Shown piece after piece: positions 20,300-36,387 of a stretch of 36,390 nt of DNA. The DNA comes from Acidobacteriota bacterium. GTDB lineage: Bacteria; Acidobacteriota; UBA6911; JACQSX01. Under the pieces are notes generated by a model. That model saw only the letters and a program-made list of their open reading frames with translations, did no database searches and had not been told where the DNA came from. A program made the translations under genes and the position numbers. The stretch covers positions 1 through 36,390 of the forward strand of contig DASXQR010000110.1 of assembly GCA_036507075.1 (NCBI GenBank), read 5' to 3'. Position 1 is the first letter of the stretch. The number at the start of each line of letters is the position of its first letter.

Positions 20300-21217
20300 T
20301 CACTCTTTCAGCGACGGTTGATCAATACTTGCCGGCAATTCGGGCAACGGTTCCCCTCGAGCCGGGTCGTCCGCCAGGGCTTTGCCCCATCGCCGCATTC
20401 GCGCAAGAAAATCCTTCAACTCTTCGGTTTCCGGAACCCGCTGGTTATTCTCATAGCCCTGGATCAAAATTTCTGTTTTGTGAAGAAGCTCGACCAGCAT
20501 CTCCCGCCGCCATTCAGGCCGGAGATCCTGATCGGGCAGGCGCGCGTGCAGCGCTTTGACCCTCCAGCGATCCATTCCCCAGAATTTGCGAGACAGTTGA
20601 TCTGCATGGCCGCCAAACTTCGTGATCAGCCGATCATTTACCAGCGAGACGGGAAACCTTGATGTGACGCGCAGCCAGAATTCGTAATCCTCGCAGACGG
20701 TAAAAGCAGTGTCGAAGACCCCCACTCGCTCCAACACGGACCGATGAACCAGCGATGACGAGGGACTGACAACGCACAGCGGAAGGCACTGGAGAAAGAT
20801 CCAGCCGCCGTGCTTCTGATGTTTCTTCATCGGATTTACCCGGCGCCCCCGCCGGATCCAGATCTCATCGGTATGACAGATTCGATCCCCGGTCGCGCCG
20901 ATCATTTCAAATTGTCTTTCCAGCTTTGCCGGCAGCCAGACGTCATCGGAATCCAGGAATGCAAGCCAGTCAGAGCGGGCCAGTTCTATGCCGCAGTTTC
21001 GGGCTGCCGATACTCCCTGATTCTCAGTCCTGTGATAGCGCACTCGCGGATCGGCGCCGAAGCGATTGCAGACATTTTCCGTGCCGTCCCGGGAGCCATC
21101 GTCCACGATGATCAGTTCCCAGTCAGCAAAAGTCTGCGTCAGAACAGATTCAATTGCGCGGGGAAGCAGCAACGCGCGATTCCATGTAGGAATGATGACG
21201 GAGACTTTGGGGATCAA
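20300..21217 (-). CDS. Glycosyltransferase family 2
   Basis: VSVIIPTWNR, VDDGSRD, GVSAARN, FLDSDD and EDYEFW motifs. Confidence 0.92.
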   Translation of the reverse strand: MIPKVSVIIPTWNRALLLPRAIESVLTQTFADWELIIVDDGSRDGTENVCNRFGADPRVRYHRTENQGVSAARNCGIELARSDWLAFLDSDDVWLPAKLERQFEMIGATGDRICHTDEIWIRRGRRVNPMKKHQKHGGWIFLQCLPLCVVSPSSSLVHRSVLERVGVFDTAFTVCEDYEFWLRVTSRFPVSLVNDRLITKFGGHADQLSRKFWGMDRWRVKALHARLPDQDLRPEWRREMLVELLHKTEILIQGYENNQRVPETEELKDFLARMRRWGKALADDPARGEPLPELPASIDQPSLKE

Positions 21218-21247: not shown

Positions 21248-21515
21248 GGTTATCGGGTTATCGGGTTATCGGGTTATCGGGTTATCGGGTTGCGGGTTAC
21301 CGGTTTTCGGGTTACGAGTTTTCGAATTACGGTTTTCGAGTTACGGGTTTTTGAAATTGCGCAATTTAGAGTTTTAAGCCTGCAAAGTTCGAAGCCCCAC
21401 GAATTCTCTGAATCTTCGATCCGGAACTCGTAACCTGATGACCGTCCGAAACCCGTAACCCGATAACCCGATAACCCGAAAACCCGTAACCCGATAACCC
21501 GTAACCCGAAAACTT
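21248..21515. repeat. Inverted octamer arrays (gggttatc)n ... (aacccgat/aacccgta)n
   Basis: Degenerating octamer array at 21248-21350 mirrored at ~21425-21515. Confidence 0.85.
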
Positions 21516-21526
21516 ATAGGCTGCAA

Positions 21527-24034
21527 CTAAGCGAGGGGTCGACCTTCGAATGAGATTAATCGCGGCTTTGATTTAAGTTTGCGATCAGTGCGCTGCACTT
21601 TGTTGGAGTACATGTTCTGATCGGCCAGCGCGATCAGCGCCTGCATATCCCTGCCATCTTCGGGAAATGTGGCGCACCCGACGCTGATGCCGATGCGAAT
21701 AACGGCGCCGTCCAGTTGCATTTCGTGCTCGTCAACGCTTCTCTGGATGCGCTGGATATTGTCTTCGGCCTGCGCCCGGTTTGCGCCCGAGAGCATCGCT
21801 ACAAATTCATCGCCGGCATAACGCACGCATGTGTCCGATTTGCGCATCTGATTTCGAAGGATGTGGGACACTTCAACCAGCAGCCTGTCCCCCACCTGGT
21901 GCCCATAGGTATCATTCACATGCTTGAATCTTTCCAGGTCCATCACCAGGATTGAAACCGGATAGCCGAGCCTTTCGGCGCGCCGAAATTCCTGCTCCAG
22001 GAAAATGTAGAGGTATCTGGAGTTGGGAAGTCCTGTCAGCAGGTCGGTATAGGCGTCCTCCTGGGTCTCTTCAAAGATCAGGGCGTTGTTGATGGCCACC
22101 GCGGCCTGTCTTCCAATGGTCTCCAGCAGCCGCTGGTGATCCTGGGAGTAATTTCGCGCGAATTCCGAATAAAGCGTGATGACGGCTACGATATTGCCTT
22201 CACTCGATAACGGCACCGACAAGCAGCTCTGAAACACATTCTGCAATTCACGCGAATCAGGAAAATCCCCGGCAGGTGAGGCATTCAGGATGGATTGATT
22301 GTTGGCCACCACCCAACCCGTGCAGCCTTCGCCACGCGCCGGATGCAGCTTTTCGATCTGCTCGGCATCTTTTCCCTGCGCGTGGAAGCACGACAGGCTG
22401 TCCCCGCCGCTGTCTACCAGGAAAATCCCGCAGGCGCTGTACGAGATGATGTTCTTGATCTTCCCCGCGATAATAGCCAGTGTCTCCGATACGCTTAAGG
22501 ATTTGCCCACGTTCTGAGAAAGCTCGTAAATGGCATGGATCTCTTTGTGCGTGGCCGCGATATCGTGAAAAACCGTGGTTTCAATGCGGTGCTTGCGACT
22601 GGTCACCTCAGCGGCAACAGATTCTTCGATGCTTCGCAGCACCGTCTCGGGCAGATGTGCTTCCTCTTCCCGCGCCCGCTTTTCCAGCGTCTCAATGTTC
22701 TCGGAAAACAGCCGCACCAGTTCCGGATCGTAGGAAATACTCGCCTCTTTCTGAATATAATCCAGCGCGACTTCGCGACTAAGCTCCGCCCGATAGGGGC
22801 GGTCGGAGCGCAGGGCGTCGTAACAGTCGACGATGGACAGAATGCGAGCGCCCAGGGGGATGGCGTCACCCTTCAGTCCATCGGGATAACCGCTTCCGTC
22901 CCACTTTTCATGATGGTGTTTGACCGTAGGCACGACGGGGAATGGAAAGTTCACAGAACTGAGAATGTCCGCACCCACTATGGGGTGGATCTTCATCTTC
23001 TGGAATTCACTTTCCGTAAGCGCGGTCGGCTTGTTGAGGATGTACTCGGGAATGGCCAGCTTTCCGACGTCGTGCAGAAGCGAAGCGGCCCTGAGTCCCT
23101 CTATTTCGCGAGTATCCCCTATACCTGCCAGCTCGGCCAGTCCCAGCGCAAAGCTCTGCACCCGGCGAACGTGGCCGTGCGTGGTTTGATCCTTCGCGTC
23201 AATGGCCATGGCCAGCGAGCTGATGGTTGAGTGGTAAAGCTCGTTCACTTCCGCCACGTGTTTCTGGGCCTGTTCGATCCTGTCCAGGTAAACCTTATAG
23301 GTGAAGTAAAAGACCATCACAATCGGAATGGTCACGGACACCAGATAGATACTTTCTCTGGGGACGTAATGGCGCGGCAGGTATACCACCAGAGTGGCGG
23401 CGGCAGCTCCTGCAAAATGGGTTAAAGAGGTCCAGAGGAAATTGTCCCACCACAGGTCGACAAAGCGAGTCCTGGTCACCAAAGACATGGCCAGGGCGAC
23501 GGAACCGCTGTTGAAGATGAACAAAACAATGGAAGCAATACTCAGCGAGAGCAGGACCTTGATCAGGTCCGGAGGAGAGGCAACGGGAAATTTTCCATTG
23601 CTGTAAAAGTGATAGAAAACCTTGCAAGCAAGAAAAGAGCCGATTGCCACGTTGGAGAAATTAAAAAGGAACCGGTATCCGCCGTCCAACTGCTTGCGCA
23701 TCTGGCTGCGCAGGTTGGATACCAGCGTGTCGACGACGGTAAGAATGACCGTCACATATGGGCCATACCAAAGGATTGCTACGTAAATAAAGACGTCTGA
23801 TAAGGTTACCGTCAGTGAGTGGGCCCGATTGGTCATGGTGGGAATTCGGACCGATAGAAGACCTCCCACGGTGGCAAGCACGGCCAGGAAAACCCATTCG
23901 TCATTCCTGCGGCTCACTACGAAAACCTGGAAAAGCGACCACACAAGGATGGCGCATCCTAAAAGATTAATTGTGTAAATAAAGGCTTTTGCTGGCAGGC
24001 TCAGGGGGGCGGAACTGTCCTCTTTAATGATCAT
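21527..24034 (-). CDS. Membrane-bound c-di-GMP signalling protein: ~7 TM sensor - HD-GYP - GAF - GGDEF
   Basis: Hydrophobic N-terminal ~250 aa; DAKD..T.GH, LLHDVGK and HHEKWDGSGYP; GAF (GCTGWV, CLSVPL); D.LTGLPN, FKHVNDTYGHQVGD and RKSD..RYAGDEF. Confidence 0.93.
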   Translation of the reverse strand: MIIKEDSSAPLSLPAKAFIYTINLLGCAILVWSLFQVFVVSRRNDEWVFLAVLATVGGLLSVRIPTMTNRAHSLTVTLSDVFIYVAILWYGPYVTVILTVVDTLVSNLRSQMRKQLDGGYRFLFNFSNVAIGSFLACKVFYHFYSNGKFPVASPPDLIKVLLSLSIASIVLFIFNSGSVALAMSLVTRTRFVDLWWDNFLWTSLTHFAGAAAATLVVYLPRHYVPRESIYLVSVTIPIVMVFYFTYKVYLDRIEQAQKHVAEVNELYHSTISSLAMAIDAKDQTTHGHVRRVQSFALGLAELAGIGDTREIEGLRAASLLHDVGKLAIPEYILNKPTALTESEFQKMKIHPIVGADILSSVNFPFPVVPTVKHHHEKWDGSGYPDGLKGDAIPLGARILSIVDCYDALRSDRPYRAELSREVALDYIQKEASISYDPELVRLFSENIETLEKRAREEEAHLPETVLRSIEESVAAEVTSRKHRIETTVFHDIAATHKEIHAIYELSQNVGKSLSVSETLAIIAGKIKNIISYSACGIFLVDSGGDSLSCFHAQGKDAEQIEKLHPARGEGCTGWVVANNQSILNASPAGDFPDSRELQNVFQSCLSVPLSSEGNIVAVITLYSEFARNYSQDHQRLLETIGRQAAVAINNALIFEETQEDAYTDLLTGLPNSRYLYIFLEQEFRRAERLGYPVSILVMDLERFKHVNDTYGHQVGDRLLVEVSHILRNQMRKSDTCVRYAGDEFVAMLSGANRAQAEDNIQRIQRSVDEHEMQLDGAVIRIGISVGCATFPEDGRDMQALIALADQNMYSNKVQRTDRKLKSKPRLISFEGRPLA

Positions 24035-24068
24035 TAGGCGTCGTCGTTCCGAGGGCTGGCGTCAACGC

Positions 24069-24104
24069 AAAGAGGGGGGATACACCACATCCCCCCCCTT
24101 TTTT
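24069..24104. terminator. G/C stem-loop, probable (partial) intrinsic terminator
   Basis: aaagaggggggat-acaccac-atccccccccttt; T6 tail on the + strand, short TCTTT tail on the - strand. Confidence 0.6.
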
Positions 24105-24160
24105 ATCTCAATTCCGTTGCAGTTTACAGGAGCGCGAACGCTGCTCCCATGACATCCAGC

Positions 24161-24196
24161 CTACGTAGTCCAGTAGACGATTGATCTGATTATCAT
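24161..24196 (-). CDS. Small peptide MIIRSIVYWTT (11 aa; alternative in-frame ATG at 24235 gives MPKLSSRRKRRSSMIIRSIVYWTT)
   Basis: AAAGGAG 7 nt before ATG; reads ATG ATA ATC AGA TCA ATC GTC TAC TGG ACT ACG TAG; shares IVYWTT with the neighbouring peptide. Confidence 0.7.
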   Translation of the reverse strand: MIIRSIVYWTT

Positions 24197-24266
24197 ACTA
24201 GATCTCCTTTTTCGTCGAGAAGAAAGTTTTGGCATAGCAACCTCAACAGCAACTGGTGCTACCCTT

Positions 24267-24320
24267 TTACGTCGTCCAGTAAACGATCTGATTTGTCCAG
24301 TAAACGATTTGAGTATTCAT
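24267..24320 (-). CDS. Small peptide MNTQIVYWTNQIVYWTT (17 aa)
   Basis: Protease stop TAA is followed directly by AGGAG-5nt-ATG; two QIVYWT units with synonymous differences. Confidence 0.78.
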   Translation of the reverse strand: MNTQIVYWTNQIVYWTT

Positions 24321-24330
24321 GTCTTCTCCT

Positions 24331-26340
24331 TTATGCAAATTCGCCGGTTACAATGCTGTTAGTCCAAGTGATGAAATTGGTCCACGTAATCAGGTCCGAA
24401 TTGGTCCAGGTGATCAGATTGGTCCACGTGATCAGATCAGAGTTTGTCCAGGTGATCAGATCGGAGTTTGTCCAGGTGATCAGATCCGAATTCGTCCAGG
24501 TGATGAGATTGGTCCAGGTAATCAGATTCGTCCAGGTAATAAGGTCCGAATTGGTCCAGGTGATCAGGTCCGAATTGGTCCAGGTGATCAGGTCTGAATT
24601 GGTCCACGTAATCAAATCCGAAGCGGACAAAACTACGGGACTTGACCAGCTCACACTGTCAGTTGAGCCGCTTTTCCCCGTGAAAATCGGGTGATAACGC
24701 TGGATCAGCGGATCGCTCCAGGCCTTGTCGGTAATGGTAATCGCACTAGACCAGACTCTGCCGCTTCCCCAGACAGCGGCAGAATTAGAGCGGATGTAGC
24801 TTCCGTACACCACTCCCCTGCCGAGGATCATGGCCTGTCCCCAGTCAACTTTCTCGCTTCCGATATGCGAAAAGGGAACCGTGGCTCCCGCCTGGATAAT
24901 TCGATCCCCCGGTGTCCTTGACCTGATATCCCGGGTAATTACCGTTGCAAGACGCGCGGCGCCTTCGATGTTCACTTCGCCATTGCCCTGCTCCAGGAAA
25001 TTGGGGCGGGTCATTTTTTCGGCCGTGTACATCATCACAGCACGGGCCAGGTTCGTATTCAGGTCGGGATTGGCCTCCAGAACCAGGGCGAAAGCGCCGG
25101 AGACTACCGCTGCCGACATGGACGTGCCGCTGAGCGTTATCAGCTCATTGTCGGGGGAAAGCTGGCCGGGATAGGTTCCCGCCAGATAGGAACCCTTCGC
25201 GTTGATGGAAGTGATTCGGTGGCCCGGAGCTACGATATCGGGCTTTAAGAGACCATCCGGGAAAGAGGGTCCAATTGCGCTGAATCTGGCAATTTCGTCG
25301 TCGGATCGAGAAACAGTGCCGTTTGATTTTGTGGCGCCCACCGCCACAACCAACGGGTTGTTTGCCGGCGAGTAGATGCCGCCAACCACAGTCCGTCCTT
25401 CGAAGTAACCCGAATTGCCGGCGGAAGCCACAACAATTATTCCAGCTTCAACGGCGCGCTGAGCGGCTCGCGACAAGGGGTCTGTGGCATAGCCTTCCTT
25501 AGGTCCGTGACCGGCCGAAAGGTTGATTATGTTGATCCCATACTGACGCTTGTTTCTTACACACCAATCCAGCGCGCTTATAACGTCACTGGTGCGACCC
25601 GAACCATCATCCCCAAGTGCCCTCAGGGAAATCAGGTTTACGTCAGGGGCCATTCCTCGGAACGAGCTGCCGGCACTCTCAAGTCTCCCGCCAATGAGTC
25701 CGGCAACATGAGTTCCATGGCCGTAACCATCCCGGCTCTGGAAGTCGTTGCCGTCCTCTGCGGCAGAGTTGGTGAAATCTCGTGAGGCAATTACCCTCAG
25801 ACCAACACGTCGATCGATACCGCTGTCGATCACCGCCACCGTGACGCCCTTACCGGTCAAACCGAGTGCCGCCCCTGCCTGCTGAGCCCCCGTTGTCTCG
25901 GACGTCAAGCTTGCGTCAGGTTCATAGCCGCTCGCTTGAACCGGGTCGTCGGCCGAGACGCGAACCACATCCTCGCCGAGCGCAAGATCGACCAGTCTTT
26001 CCATGGGAAGCTCGAGTGCCTGCGCCTGAATCAGGGAAAGCTGTTTCAGCACGCGCCCTCCCAGAGCTTGAACCCAGGCTTCATTCAGCCGGCCTCGATC
26101 GACAGCTTCAGACTTTTGAGCGCGGTTTTGAAACTGGACAATCACTCGGACTAGGCGTGACGTCTGCCTGGATCGATAAGCTTGGGCAAGTTCACTCAGA
26201 ACATCCGGTGACAGGCGCTTTTCGAGCCGGTTGTAAAGGCTCTCGTAGGGTTTGGAAGTGGCAGCGATCGCGGGAGTCGTCAGGACAATGAGAATAGCGA
26301 GCGCGAACAGCCACTTCCGCTTGACGATGGTGTGGGCCAT
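24331..26340 (-). CDS. Secreted S8 (subtilisin-like) serine protease with C-terminal Trp-repeat tail
   Basis: AAGGAGG RBS; signal peptide; prodomain; triad VAVIDSG / HGTHVAG / SGTSMS and oxyanion SAGN; 12 (SD)LITWTN repeats. Confidence 0.95.
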   Translation of the reverse strand: MAHTIVKRKWLFALAILIVLTTPAIAATSKPYESLYNRLEKRLSPDVLSELAQAYRSRQTSRLVRVIVQFQNRAQKSEAVDRGRLNEAWVQALGGRVLKQLSLIQAQALELPMERLVDLALGEDVVRVSADDPVQASGYEPDASLTSETTGAQQAGAALGLTGKGVTVAVIDSGIDRRVGLRVIASRDFTNSAAEDGNDFQSRDGYGHGTHVAGLIGGRLESAGSSFRGMAPDVNLISLRALGDDGSGRTSDVISALDWCVRNKRQYGINIINLSAGHGPKEGYATDPLSRAAQRAVEAGIIVVASAGNSGYFEGRTVVGGIYSPANNPLVVAVGATKSNGTVSRSDDEIARFSAIGPSFPDGLLKPDIVAPGHRITSINAKGSYLAGTYPGQLSPDNELITLSGTSMSAAVVSGAFALVLEANPDLNTNLARAVMMYTAEKMTRPNFLEQGNGEVNIEGAARLATVITRDIRSRTPGDRIIQAGATVPFSHIGSEKVDWGQAMILGRGVVYGSYIRSNSAAVWGSGRVWSSAITITDKAWSDPLIQRYHPIFTGKSGSTDSVSWSSPVVLSASDLITWTNSDLITWTNSDLITWTNSDLITWTNLITWTNLITWTNSDLITWTNSDLITWTNSDLITWTNLITWTNSDLITWTNFITWTNSIVTGEFA
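24358..24621 (-). repeat. Coding tandem repeat: 8x SDLITWTN + 3x LITWTN + 1x FITWTN
   Basis: 24- and 18-nt units counted in both DNA and translation. Confidence 0.95.
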
Positions 26341-26419
26341 CCAGTCCTCCTTAACGCAGTGGAATCATCCAGAGCTCCCTTGTCGGAGCCTGGAGCACCC
26401 AAACAATGAGCGAGTTCCA

Positions 26420-26552
26420 CTTCGGCGACCGGTCGACCTGCCCTCAACCGTTCAAGGCTGCTTGCGCCTGTCCAATGACACACAGCCCGTTCGGCCTCGG
26501 ATTTAGGTCCGCGGCTTTGCGCCCTGATCTTTCAACCAGGTTGCCCTTTCGG
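26420..26552 (-). ncRNA. c-di-GMP-I (GEMM) riboswitch aptamer, proximal copy with long P3 insertion
   Basis: Minus strand CCGAAAGGGCAACCTGGTT-GAAA-GATCAGGGCGCAAAGCCGCGGACCTAAA...GGTCGACCGGTCGCCGAAG matches the GEMM pattern GGCAA-stem-GAAA-stem-GCAAAGCC..G.CTAA...GCC. Confidence 0.78.
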
Positions 26553-26567
26553 TGGTGGTGCCCCCCT

Positions 26568-26655
26568 CGTACGGCAGCCGTCGAAACCTTATCGTCCAGA
26601 CTTAGGTCCGCGGCTTTGCTTAGCCATCTTTCGACTGGCTTCGCCTTTTCGTCGT
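26568..26655 (-). ncRNA. c-di-GMP-I (GEMM) riboswitch aptamer, distal copy
   Basis: Minus strand GAAAAGGCGAAGCCAGTC-GAAA-GATGGCTAAGCAAAGCCGCGGACCTAAG...GGTTTCGACGGCTGCCG; shares the 18-nt core GCAAAGCCGCGGACCTAA with the proximal copy. Confidence 0.75.
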
Positions 26656-26714
26656 TAGCCTTTACCGCTACGTAAAGGTGCTACAGTTGGGTGTGGGTCG
26701 TACAGATGGGCGAA

Positions 26715-26743
26715 AGTATCGTCGGTAAGCAGGCCACTGTCAA
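26715..26743 (-). promoter_or_regulatory. sigma70-type promoter for the riboswitch-protease operon
   Basis: TTGACA-17 nt-GATACT on the minus strand, ~60 nt upstream of the distal aptamer. Confidence 0.65.
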
Positions 26744-26939
26744 GGAAAAAGTGTCAAAAAGTTGACGAATACGTCATTTTTTTGGTGTGTCCGTCATGAA
26801 TGTGACACTATCCCAATTGGTTGTTAGCAAGCTTAAGTGCACTGATTTGATCAAAATGGATGGGAATCGTTCTTAATCGCATCGGCACACATGCCTTCGA
26901 CATGTTTTTGCAGCCTTGATGATCTGCCGGGCAGTGCTG

Positions 26940-28416: not shown

Positions 28417-28733
28417 GACCCAATGCCCATATCCGAGCCGCGGGCGTACGCAAGCGGACCCTCCGCTGGTAGTTTGCCACGAATGCACGAAGACAGGAAG
28501 GACAACGACCCAATGCCCATATCCGAACCGCGCGCGTAAGCAAGCGGACCCTGCGCGGGTAGTTTGCCACGAAGGCACGAAGACAGGAAGGACAACGATT
28601 GCCTTAGAAGTGCCACTTCTCCGACAACCTGGATCGAGTTATGAGAAGTGTTACGTCAAAATGAACAGCGATTCTTCGTGGCTTCGTGGCAAATCCCCGC
28701 GGAGGGTCCGCTTGCTTACGCGCGCGGCTCGGA
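28417..28733. repeat. Composite repeat: 90-bp tandem duplication (28417-28506, 28507-28596) plus inverted arm (28674-28733)
   Basis: Each unit contains ccgagccgcgggcgtacgcaagcggaccc and tttgccacgaa.gcacgaag; the right arm is the reverse complement. Confidence 0.88.
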
Positions 28734-31295: not shown

Positions 31296-31304
31296 CTTTG
31301 GTTG

Positions 31305-31517
31305 TTAGTTGTCAGTGGTCCGTTGTCAGTGGTCCGTTGTCAGTGGTCCGTTGTCAGTGGTCCGTTGTCAGTTGTTCGTTGCCCTTGTCGGCTGAAGGTA
31401 CTTTCCAAGGTTCACTCGATACTCGACATTTGACCCTCGTCACTCCCAGCAACGTCCAACTGACCACGGACAACGGACAGCCTTATTCCGCATTCCACAT
31501 TCCGCATTCCGCATTCG
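31305..31517. repeat. (gtcagtggtccgtt)n 14-mer array with inverted partner (~31458-31479), followed by an attccgc heptamer array
   Basis: Directly visible between ftsQ and ftsA. Confidence 0.85.
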
Positions 31518-36194: not shown

Positions 36195-36387
36195 GATTGC
36201 GGAAATCGGAATGCGGAATGCGGAATAAGTATCGGTACTCATTTTGACCACGAATCGGTTCTCTGTCGTATTCCCAACTCCCTATCCCGCATTCCGCATT
36301 CCCCATTCCCCATTCCGCATTCCGCATTCCGCATTCCGCATTCCCCATTCCAAATTCCACATTCCGCATTTCAAATTCCGCATTCAA
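36195..36387. repeat. Inverted heptamer arrays (gaatgcg)n ... (attccgc/attcccc)n
   Basis: Short left array at 36197-36225 and long right array at ~36287-36385. Confidence 0.85.

Follow-up and report, generated by a model that had tools for sequence, protein, structure and literature searches.

Results

Organization of the locus

We analyzed a 36,390-nucleotide (nt) stretch of DNA from an Acidobacteriota bacterium (assembly GCA_036507075.1, contig DASXQR010000110.1, positions 1 to 36,390; hereafter, the window). One co-oriented run on its minus strand comprises a putative promoter, two cyclic di-GMP (c-di-GMP) riboswitch aptamers, a secreted S8 protease with a Trp-repeat tail, two very short open reading frames (micro-ORFs), a hairpin, and a membrane receptor in which a MASE9 domain is fused to HD-GYP, GAF and GGDEF domains (Table 1). 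A preliminary description, made from the sequence alone, had reported this run, and all of its parts were found. It had further proposed that Trp peptides, cut from the protease tail or encoded separately, are ligands of the receptor, whose c-di-GMP output would feed back through the riboswitches. Comparative genomics indicates that the module is real and conserved, and makes the ligand role of the peptides a specific hypothesis.

Table 1. Features of the protease-peptide-receptor locus, in window coordinates.
Feature	Position	Strand	Basis
System span	21527-26743	-	promoter, 2 aptamers, S8, 2 micro-ORFs, hairpin, receptor
Sigma-70-type promoter, TTGACA-17-GATACT (putative)	26715-26743	-	promoter scan
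5' leader segment, complementary to 26390-26399	26677-26685	-	complementarity
c-di-GMP-I riboswitch aptamer 1	26570-26655	-	RF01051 38.2 bits, gathering score 35
c-di-GMP-I riboswitch aptamer 2	26417-26558	-	RF01051 36.9 bits on 26478-26555
3' arm of long-range leader helix	26390-26399	-	complementarity
Secreted S8 subtilase, 669 aa	24331-26340	-	PF00082 E 1.6e-50
12 (SD)-[LF]ITWTN repeats, protease aa 574-661	24358-24621	-	repeat count, ORF translation
Micro-ORF 1, 17 aa, two IVYWT units	24267-24320	-	AAGGAG Shine-Dalgarno; counterparts in orthologous loci
Micro-ORF 2, 11 aa, one IVYWT unit	24161-24196	-	AAGGAG Shine-Dalgarno; counterparts in orthologous loci
G-C-rich hairpin, possible terminator, between peptides and receptor	24068-24103	.	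terminator scan
Receptor MASE9-HD-GYP-GAF-GGDEF, 835 aa	21527-24034	-	MASE9, HD_5, GAF and GGDEF domain matches
MASE9 membrane domain	23261-24034	-	PF20972 24.8 bits, cut-off 24.3

The protease and its Trp-repeat tail

The protease consists of a Sec-type signal peptide (approximately residues 1-26, by eye), a prodomain, a catalytic domain (residues 163-448) and the repeat tail. Its catalytic residues D172, H208, N309 and S407 are present, and they are invariant in 59 sequences. AlphaFold2 models the prodomain and catalytic domain well, and gives residues 515-669 a predicted local distance difference test score (pLDDT) below 50. The twelve (SD)LITWTN repeats described previously are there as ITWTN units, 11 of them LITWTN and one FITWTN, with SD preceding only 8 of the 12; the region is a candidate multi-copy peptide precursor. 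At least five Trp lie within the last 150 residues in 89 of the 120 top S8 homologs, and the tail motifs, which differ by locus, vary around [NSTG]-[IVL]-[VIL]-W-[GST]-[DSNT]. Named homologs are nearly all from Acidobacteriota.

A repeat of this kind might instead be structural. The tail could form a beta-solenoid or amyloid-like fiber, serving as anchor or matrix under c-di-GMP, with the micropeptides seeding or capping it and the receptor merely a co-located regulator. c-di-GMP commonly controls matrix, and six is the most frequent spacing between tail Trp residues (37% of 1321 spacings in 152 tails). Trp-less tails of the GDGIV type resemble hexapeptide repeats, and an ESM Atlas match to the tail is a cluster with Hexapep (PF00132) in 28% of its members, a lead only; a domain scan gave no Hexapep match to the window protease. 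However, most spacings are not six, leaderless micro-ORF products would not meet a secreted tail, and the micro-ORFs stop one or two residues past the Trp and accompany some receptors for which we found no protease. The membrane domain is also linked at 17 loci where it stands alone, with no c-di-GMP domains. This amyloid or matrix alternative accounts poorly for the free peptides and for the linkage to the receptor, and we consider it unlikely.

Several variant proteases were seen (L, G, C and P are our handles for loci, genomes, contigs and proteins). Trp-less, hexapeptide-like tails occur at L075, L076, L079, L087, L127 and L128 and in P0008, P0045 and P0102, related proteases of which many are from Blastocatellia; three or four such protease genes may stand in tandem, and most have no linked MASE9 gene. 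At L047 (5430-5681) the protease stops before its Trp-repeat tail, which goes on in a separate frame (possibly a frameshift or a broken gene), and frameshifted proteases were also found at L050 and L143. A different S8 gene at G000:C51:455-5999 lies beside an HD-GYP gene, an anti-sigma-like ORF and a TPR-CHAT-like protein (labels by eye).

Micro-ORFs between protease and receptor

Neither micro-ORF encodes a signal peptide or export leader. Orthologous loci hold two or three copies, each with its own start and at variable distance from the receptor. We scanned 44 gaps between protease and membrane-domain genes for ORFs led by a ribosome-binding site and ending in hydrophobic-hydrophobic-W-x(x)-stop, a pattern composed after the peptides had been seen. 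Such ORFs occur in 16 of the 24 gaps before HD-GYP-fused receptors, where dinucleotide shuffles predict 0.12, and in 16 of the 18 such gaps of at least 100 nt; the three gaps that precede neither these receptors nor stand-alone membrane domains gave none. Among 17 IV[YH]W cores from six loci, pairwise codon differences were 172 synonymous versus 32 non-synonymous. Judged by these comparisons, the micro-ORFs are real in an evolutionary sense, kept as protein sequence. Their being chance ORFs was rejected by the shuffle counts, the synonymous excess and a genome-wide pattern search with controls (see below).

The motif of the short ORFs had been predicted to co-vary with the tail. In a hand-made table, in which kin among the loci are not independent, tail and peptide share the same residue after the Trp at 15 of 23 loci (permutation gives 8.6; p 0.003) and differ there at the other eight, so the prediction held in part. 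Among close orthologs, the last peptide residue tracks the tail, being N in the window, S and N in L021, and D in L022 and L023. At L028, a deacetylase-like ORF (by eye) lies between peptide and receptor.

Linkage of protease and MASE9 genes across genomes

In the window genome, all four Trp-tailed S8 paralogs are directly followed by a MASE9-like gene. The three besides the window protease have tails of the I[IV]W[SAT][DE] type, and each is followed by a stand-alone membrane domain of 255-265 residues. Among 40 relatives, 15 have an S8 match below 1e-50, and all 15 have the membrane domain (E 1.7e-16 or better); nine have the membrane domain and no S8 match below 1e-50, and 16 have neither. 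The membrane domain lies beside the protease in 15 of the 20 loci from these relatives.

A search for related loci with a single protease as query returned no match. An S8 alignment gathered 78 loci from GTDB, of which 27 had an incomplete gene or flanks that were too short and were set aside, leaving 51 with a complete S8 gene and 3 kb on either side; these were searched with a MASE9-like profile built from other sequences. Of the 39 Trp-tailed proteases, 29 have a MASE9-like gene no more than 3 kb away, as do 2 of the 8 Trp-less repeat-tailed proteases and 2 of the 4 tail-less ones. Together with the micro-ORFs in the gaps, this bears out the central prediction of the preliminary description, that receptor homologs neighbor Trp-tailed S8 proteases and motif-bearing short ORFs. 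Unrelated S8 genes, a thin control set, had the membrane domain in 0 of 3 cases.

Starting from the receptor, we found 28 PF20972 matches in 14 of 101 genomes, 15 of them with a Trp-tail-type protease within about 3 kb. This sample was centered on a genome first reached via its protease, repeats four earlier genomes and was treated as the window's own phylum; the linkage tests cover Acidobacteriota. Where a genome had only unlinked MASE9 matches, the protease subfamily was present elsewhere in four of five. The protease gene is often nearly fused to the membrane-domain gene, with gaps below 60 nt. Across these samples, the sequence evidence is that protease-MASE9 linkage is strongly conserved. 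MASE9 itself is widespread (the profile built here finds about 4,800 matches in a set of representatives at 50% identity), and a search of a plasmid collection with the membrane domain gave no match.

Other arrangements were observed as well. A paralogous cassette at L043 (G000:C133:15021-23688) combines MASE9-PAS-kinase-REC, S8, a stand-alone MASE9, REC-HD-GYP and a REC-sigma-54 activator, and similar cassettes occur in L033, L026 and L050. A GNAT acetyltransferase gene directly follows the protease, with no linked MASE9, at L056:8089-8730, L106:7782-8447, L079:7948-8856 and L127:7717-8616.

Fold and predicted orientation of the receptor membrane domain

The receptor had been described as having about seven transmembrane helices; its membrane domain has eight predicted helices and falls in a named Pfam family, MASE9. 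The domain alone passes the PF20972 cut-off narrowly (Table 1), and the whole protein, at 23.0 bits, lies just under it. PF20972 matches 21 of 23 homologs at E 0.1 or better, and the top ESM Atlas matches are MASE9 clusters. MASE9-like domains occur in HD-GYP-GAF-GGDEF fusions, in kinase fusions and in a stand-alone form. P0121-P0129, proteins of about 470-500 residues, each have two MASE9-like profile matches, apparently tandem membrane domains.

All of the output domains named earlier were matched, although the GGDEF motif reads AGDEF; the RxxD inhibitory site is present. An AGDEF cyclase, VCA0965 of V. cholerae, has been shown to be active (PMC3974145). Among 21 homologs, the cyclase motif is GGDEF in seven, AGDEF in five and not parsed in nine. 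The HD-GYP motifs of the window receptor are complete (HD, HHExxDGxGYP and the downstream metal ligands), and both of the HD-GYP motifs checked are present in 33 of 41 linked receptors.

The model of the MASE9 domain (mean pLDDT 86) has eight helices and a beta-hairpin at residues 62-76. It matches 4hzu_S, an energy-coupling factor (ECF) S-component, with Z 13.3, close to the value of about 13 that the tool gives as its caution level for helical proteins (root-mean-square deviation 3.1, 160 residues). Structure-match ranks 1-15 are all S-components, and the first unrelated row has Z 8.3. Foldseek likewise lists S-component entries in its first 17 rows, with a weak best E of 1.6e-3. On these models, MASE9 has the ECF S-component fold.

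One helix precedes and one follows the six-helix core. Because of this extra helix at each end, and because the C-terminal enzymes must be cytoplasmic, the core is predicted to sit upside down, with its pocket facing the cytoplasm. The charge bias agrees with this: across 212 sequences, the gate loops L1, L3 and L5, which would be inside, carry net charges of +1.55, +3.54 and +1.24, and those of the four opposite loops range from -0.31 to -0.01. Most of the polar and aromatic residues that are conserved (D80, F82, F124, N125, W195, F199 and W201) adjoin the positive, cytoplasm-side loops, and the periplasm-side loops are short and largely unconserved. An inward pocket would fit peptides that have no export signals, and tail-derived peptides would therefore need import. 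The membrane sensor of peptides envisaged previously is supported by linkage, but the predicted cytoplasmic pocket speaks against an AgrC-like sensor of the outside. Co-folding the L039 membrane domain (106-row alignment) with its natural 36-residue peptide of three units scored 0.00 against a mark of 0.32, which counts neither for nor against binding.

The same loops bear on whether the protease could act on the receptor from the periplasm, by cleavage or by docking of the uncut tail, with the micropeptides as membrane-associated modulators or inhibitors. A secreted protease with an intact triad, the narrow gene gaps and the lack of a linked importer in this lineage would suit such a scheme. 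However, periplasmic loops that are short and unconserved, and conserved residues placed by the cytoplasm-side loops, are not what it would lead us to expect, and it leaves unexplained the motif shared by tail and peptides. We regard it as very unlikely.

Micro-ORFs apart from the protease or the receptor

At receptor loci with no adjoining protease, micro-ORFs were found upstream in 7 of the 10 tested (shuffle rate at most 0.04 each), and looser inspection added one in L150 and one in L188. In five of these genomes (G022, G026, G028, G034 and G036; 93-98% complete), the best S8 match to the query used is no better than 1.5e-9. The protease-less loci L146-L152 of family f6 carry up to four micro-ORFs before MASE9-HD-GYP receptors, of the SAILWL and TEIEILE...IVWY types, with a convergent sigma-54 activator.

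A third IVYW micro-ORF of the window genome, of 8 codons and with its own ribosome-binding site, lies in the ftsL-ftsI interval (L199:7740-7766, on G000:C176, minus strand), preceded by a 17-codon GTG ORF that contains IIW and overlaps the ftsL stop. Of four relatives in the family, three have a matching ORF, also of 8 codons, that overlaps the stop of ftsL, and the fourth has a 4-codon remnant. A micro-ORF after ftsL is thus present in four of five family genomes, the window genome included, and in none of 25 genomes outside the family. A further copy stands by itself on a different contig of G002, and both G002 and G004 have a second protease tail with peptides and no receptor in the downstream stretch examined. 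Searching with a back-translated pattern yielded 18 matches in 5 genomes that have the system, each closed by a true stop although TGG was allowed; the reversed control yielded none, as did 5 genomes without the system. Five further genomes gave 4 matches, two of which (in G023) may be chance, and G015 and G037, whose peptides differ, gave none.

These placements matter for the notion that the micro-ORFs are cis-acting leader peptides, which would govern read-through into the receptor gene by attenuation or by ribosome arrest at Trp. All of them contain Trp, and like leader peptides they precede both a hairpin and the receptor gene in the window, L021 and L025. However, the same peptides also follow ftsL or a protease that has no receptor downstream, and one stands by itself on a separate contig; up to three separately started copies occur at variable distance, and the motif is common to the secreted tail. 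By their genomic distribution, the micro-ORF peptides behave like trans-acting products, and a leader-peptide role seems to us highly improbable.

Importers and sigma-54 activators

An SBP_bac_5 importer gene lies inside 20 of the 78 loci, and the two importer homologs of the window genome (34-35% identity) sit away from the locus. A sigma-54 activator is present in 11 of the 78, two such activators having tetratricopeptide (TPR) repeats. This raises the question of whether the peptides are signals whose receptor is a cytoplasmic protein of the RRNPP kind, for example a large sigma-54 activator, with MASE9 sensing something else. The activator's convergent placement with the receptor in the protease-less f6 loci would agree with that idea. 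However, 43 of those 78 loci have a MASE9-like gene close to the protease, and the window locus has no sigma-54 activator, nor a TPR gene among the window proteins scanned. The N-terminal parts of linked activators from L109, L085, L102, L105 and L118 have no match in the window genome. The TPR-sigma-54 activator was rejected as a constant partner on its frequency and this lack of a match, and we consider such a cytoplasmic receptor quite unlikely.

The leader region and regulation of the locus

The reported promoter was found, but alone it is not above chance, as the promoter scan gave 2 such sites versus 3.2 expected; a promoter-like site lies at the equivalent position in 3 of 5 homologous leaders (L022, L031 and L045). 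The two GEMM-like aptamers were confirmed, both scoring above the RF01051 gathering score. Alignment with 9 other aptamers shows that P3 of aptamer 2 holds an insert of about 43 nt, which places its true end near 26417. The two are the only RF01051 matches of a genome search in which 150 of 580 candidates were scored. The leader segment and its complement recur, with differing sequences, in all 4 homologous leaders tested, and the long-range helix that they would form around both aptamers may be part of the expression platform. Forcing P1 shifts the opening cost of the Shine-Dalgarno region by +0.7, 0.0, -0.1, +1.0 and -0.5 kcal/mol in five leaders, in at least two of which the automatic choice of P1 was wrong.

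RF01051 matches occur in 5 of 44 other loci scanned, each time 5' of the protease, in a set where the upstream region is missing from several loci. Riboswitch feedback therefore appears lineage-specific and was rejected as a general feature; the c-di-GMP riboswitch loop proposed earlier has its aptamers in the window and does not extend to most of the other loci scanned.

A single operon reaching through the receptor had also been proposed, and this we find doubtful. The hairpin between peptides and receptor is present as described, though its core (24074-24096) scored as a terminator on the plus strand only, the minus-strand U-tract being weak; hairpins that are U-tailed in the sense direction occupy the equivalent place in L021 and L025. 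Because this hairpin precedes the receptor gene, which has no clear ribosome site, the riboswitch probably controls the protease and peptides, with the receptor transcribed separately or via read-through.

Neighboring genes

The locus lies just downstream of ftsW-murG-murC-ftsQ-ftsA-ftsZ, with a repeat and a sulfatase gene between; in three family relatives the protease directly follows ftsZ. The sulfatase is missing from this position in three relatives. The ftsZ-sulfatase interval (28417-28598) contains two 90-nt direct repeat copies and an inverted partial copy. On the other side, the interval between the receptor and a GT2 glycosyltransferase gene (21248-21513) holds a palindromic element with tandem arms of 7-8-mers, and similar short tandem arrays occur at 159-204, 31301-31381 and 36287-36385. 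The GT2 gene (20300-21217) follows the receptor in L021, L022, L025, L031, L037 and L040 too, in several families.

Discussion

We propose that the Trp peptides are probably ligands of MASE9, acting from the cytoplasm, with c-di-GMP as the output and, at this locus, as feedback. The ligands would be short peptides with a free C-terminus, whose last residues are hydrophobic-hydrophobic-Trp and one or two more, and MASE9 would receive them as an inverted S-component, in a pocket open to the cytoplasm. The micro-ORF products, if expressed, would already be inside the cell, having no signal peptide. The tail of the secreted protease would be cut outside into similar units, which would return via an Opp/Dpp-type importer. 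Binding would then shift the balance of HD-GYP and GGDEF activities, in one direction or the other, and in the window lineage the tandem riboswitch would let c-di-GMP act back on the genes for protease and peptides, whichever way it switches them.

A broader version of this model, which would amount to a new form of bacterial signaling, is possible, if rather doubtful. Here, inward receptors of the S-component fold would read Trp peptides of 7-11 residues from two sources. Tiny genes under different controls (the c-di-GMP riboswitch, and translational coupling to ftsL in the division operon) would report the cell's own growth or division state, and imported look-alike tail peptides would report population density. 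The receptor would weigh both and set c-di-GMP.

Several observations weigh against the ligand model. The whole case is genomic or predicted, and the topology rests on helix parity and charge bias. The search pattern for micro-ORFs followed the peptides, and none of the 17 gaps before stand-alone membrane domains contains one; the stand-alone domain, moreover, has no output domain. Besides the eight loci where the residue after the Trp is unlike, tails mostly lack the Tyr or His before the Trp that peptides of the window lineage have. No MASE9-like gene lies within 3 kb of 10 of the 39 Trp-tailed proteases, and 13 of the 28 MASE9 matches have no nearby protease (one of them on a 1.9-kb contig), so that, as far as these genomes indicate, neither is obligatory in cis; relatives in these counts are not independent. 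The window and L021-L054 have no linked importer gene. Finally, Trp-less hexapeptide-like tails, in 8 of 51 related protease loci, suit a structural repeat.

If the model is true, Acidobacteriota would gain a class of peptide signaling, and the 'transceptor' concept for S-components would come to include an inverted form that binds peptides. Genes of 7-11 codons, below the usual limits of gene calling, would act as trans signals, one of them in a cell-division operon. MASE9, which has no known ligand, gains a first specific candidate signal, and one that can be synthesized. We found no description of the module in the open-access literature, and a look-up of an ftsL-coupled peptide together with an inward pocket returned nothing.

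The receptor belongs to MASE9 by its score, by eight membrane segments with a short intramembrane hairpin, and by its fused outputs. Galperin and Chou, who defined the family, name no ligand and suggest intramembrane binding, and the main text of their paper does not contain the words 'peptidase' or 'protease' (10.1101/2021.11.05.467447). The one member that has been studied is Streptomyces HdgA, whose mutant has no developmental phenotype (PMC6205966). The nearest structural parallel in signaling is 5TMR-LYT (BtsS, YpdA and KinB), which likewise has the S-component fold, an extra N-terminal helix and cytoplasmic signaling domains including GGDEF and GAF (PMC11109136). S-components and 5TMR receptors turn their binding cavity, and the loop that follows helix 1, towards the outside; 5TMR-LYT has seven helices, an outside N-terminus and a site near the outside for small molecules such as pyruvate, whereas MASE9 has an eighth helix and the reverse predicted orientation (PMC11109136 for 5TMR-LYT). 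'MASE' does not occur in the main text or the three supplement files searched of that paper. PF07694 (5TMR-LYT) does not match the window receptor and matches one of 23 homologs weakly (E 0.011). Nor does the receptor appear to be an ECF S-component transporter, which partners EcfAA'T, has an outward site and ends after helix 6, because it has extra helices at both ends, fused enzymes and, by charge, gate loops inside.

Among peptide-signaling systems, those of RRNPP type (Rap/Phr, PlcR/PapR, Rgg/SHP and ComR/XIP) likewise place small peptide genes beside a receptor, and XIP is, as here, a hydrophobic Trp-containing peptide. Their secreted precursor, its proteolytic maturation and re-import by Opp have counterparts in steps that we propose. 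However, the RRNPP receptor is a cytoplasmic TPR protein, where ours would be a membrane c-di-GMP enzyme; and, unlike in RRNPP systems, the precursor would be the multi-copy tail of the protease itself, the micro-ORFs are leaderless and the host is an acidobacterium. AgrC and ComD are also membrane receptors with an adjoining peptide gene and feedback, positive or negative, on signal production, but they are histidine kinases with an outward site, whereas the receptors here mostly have c-di-GMP turnover domains and a predicted inward pocket; a domain scan of the window locus found no processing exporter of the AgrB or ComAB type. As c-di-GMP-I (GEMM) riboswitches, the window aptamers are ordinary members, and what sets them apart is the genes they would control and the long-range enclosing helix. 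The parts of the module thus come from known families, and the whole differs from RRNPP, Agr/Com and 5TMR systems in the features that define each of them.

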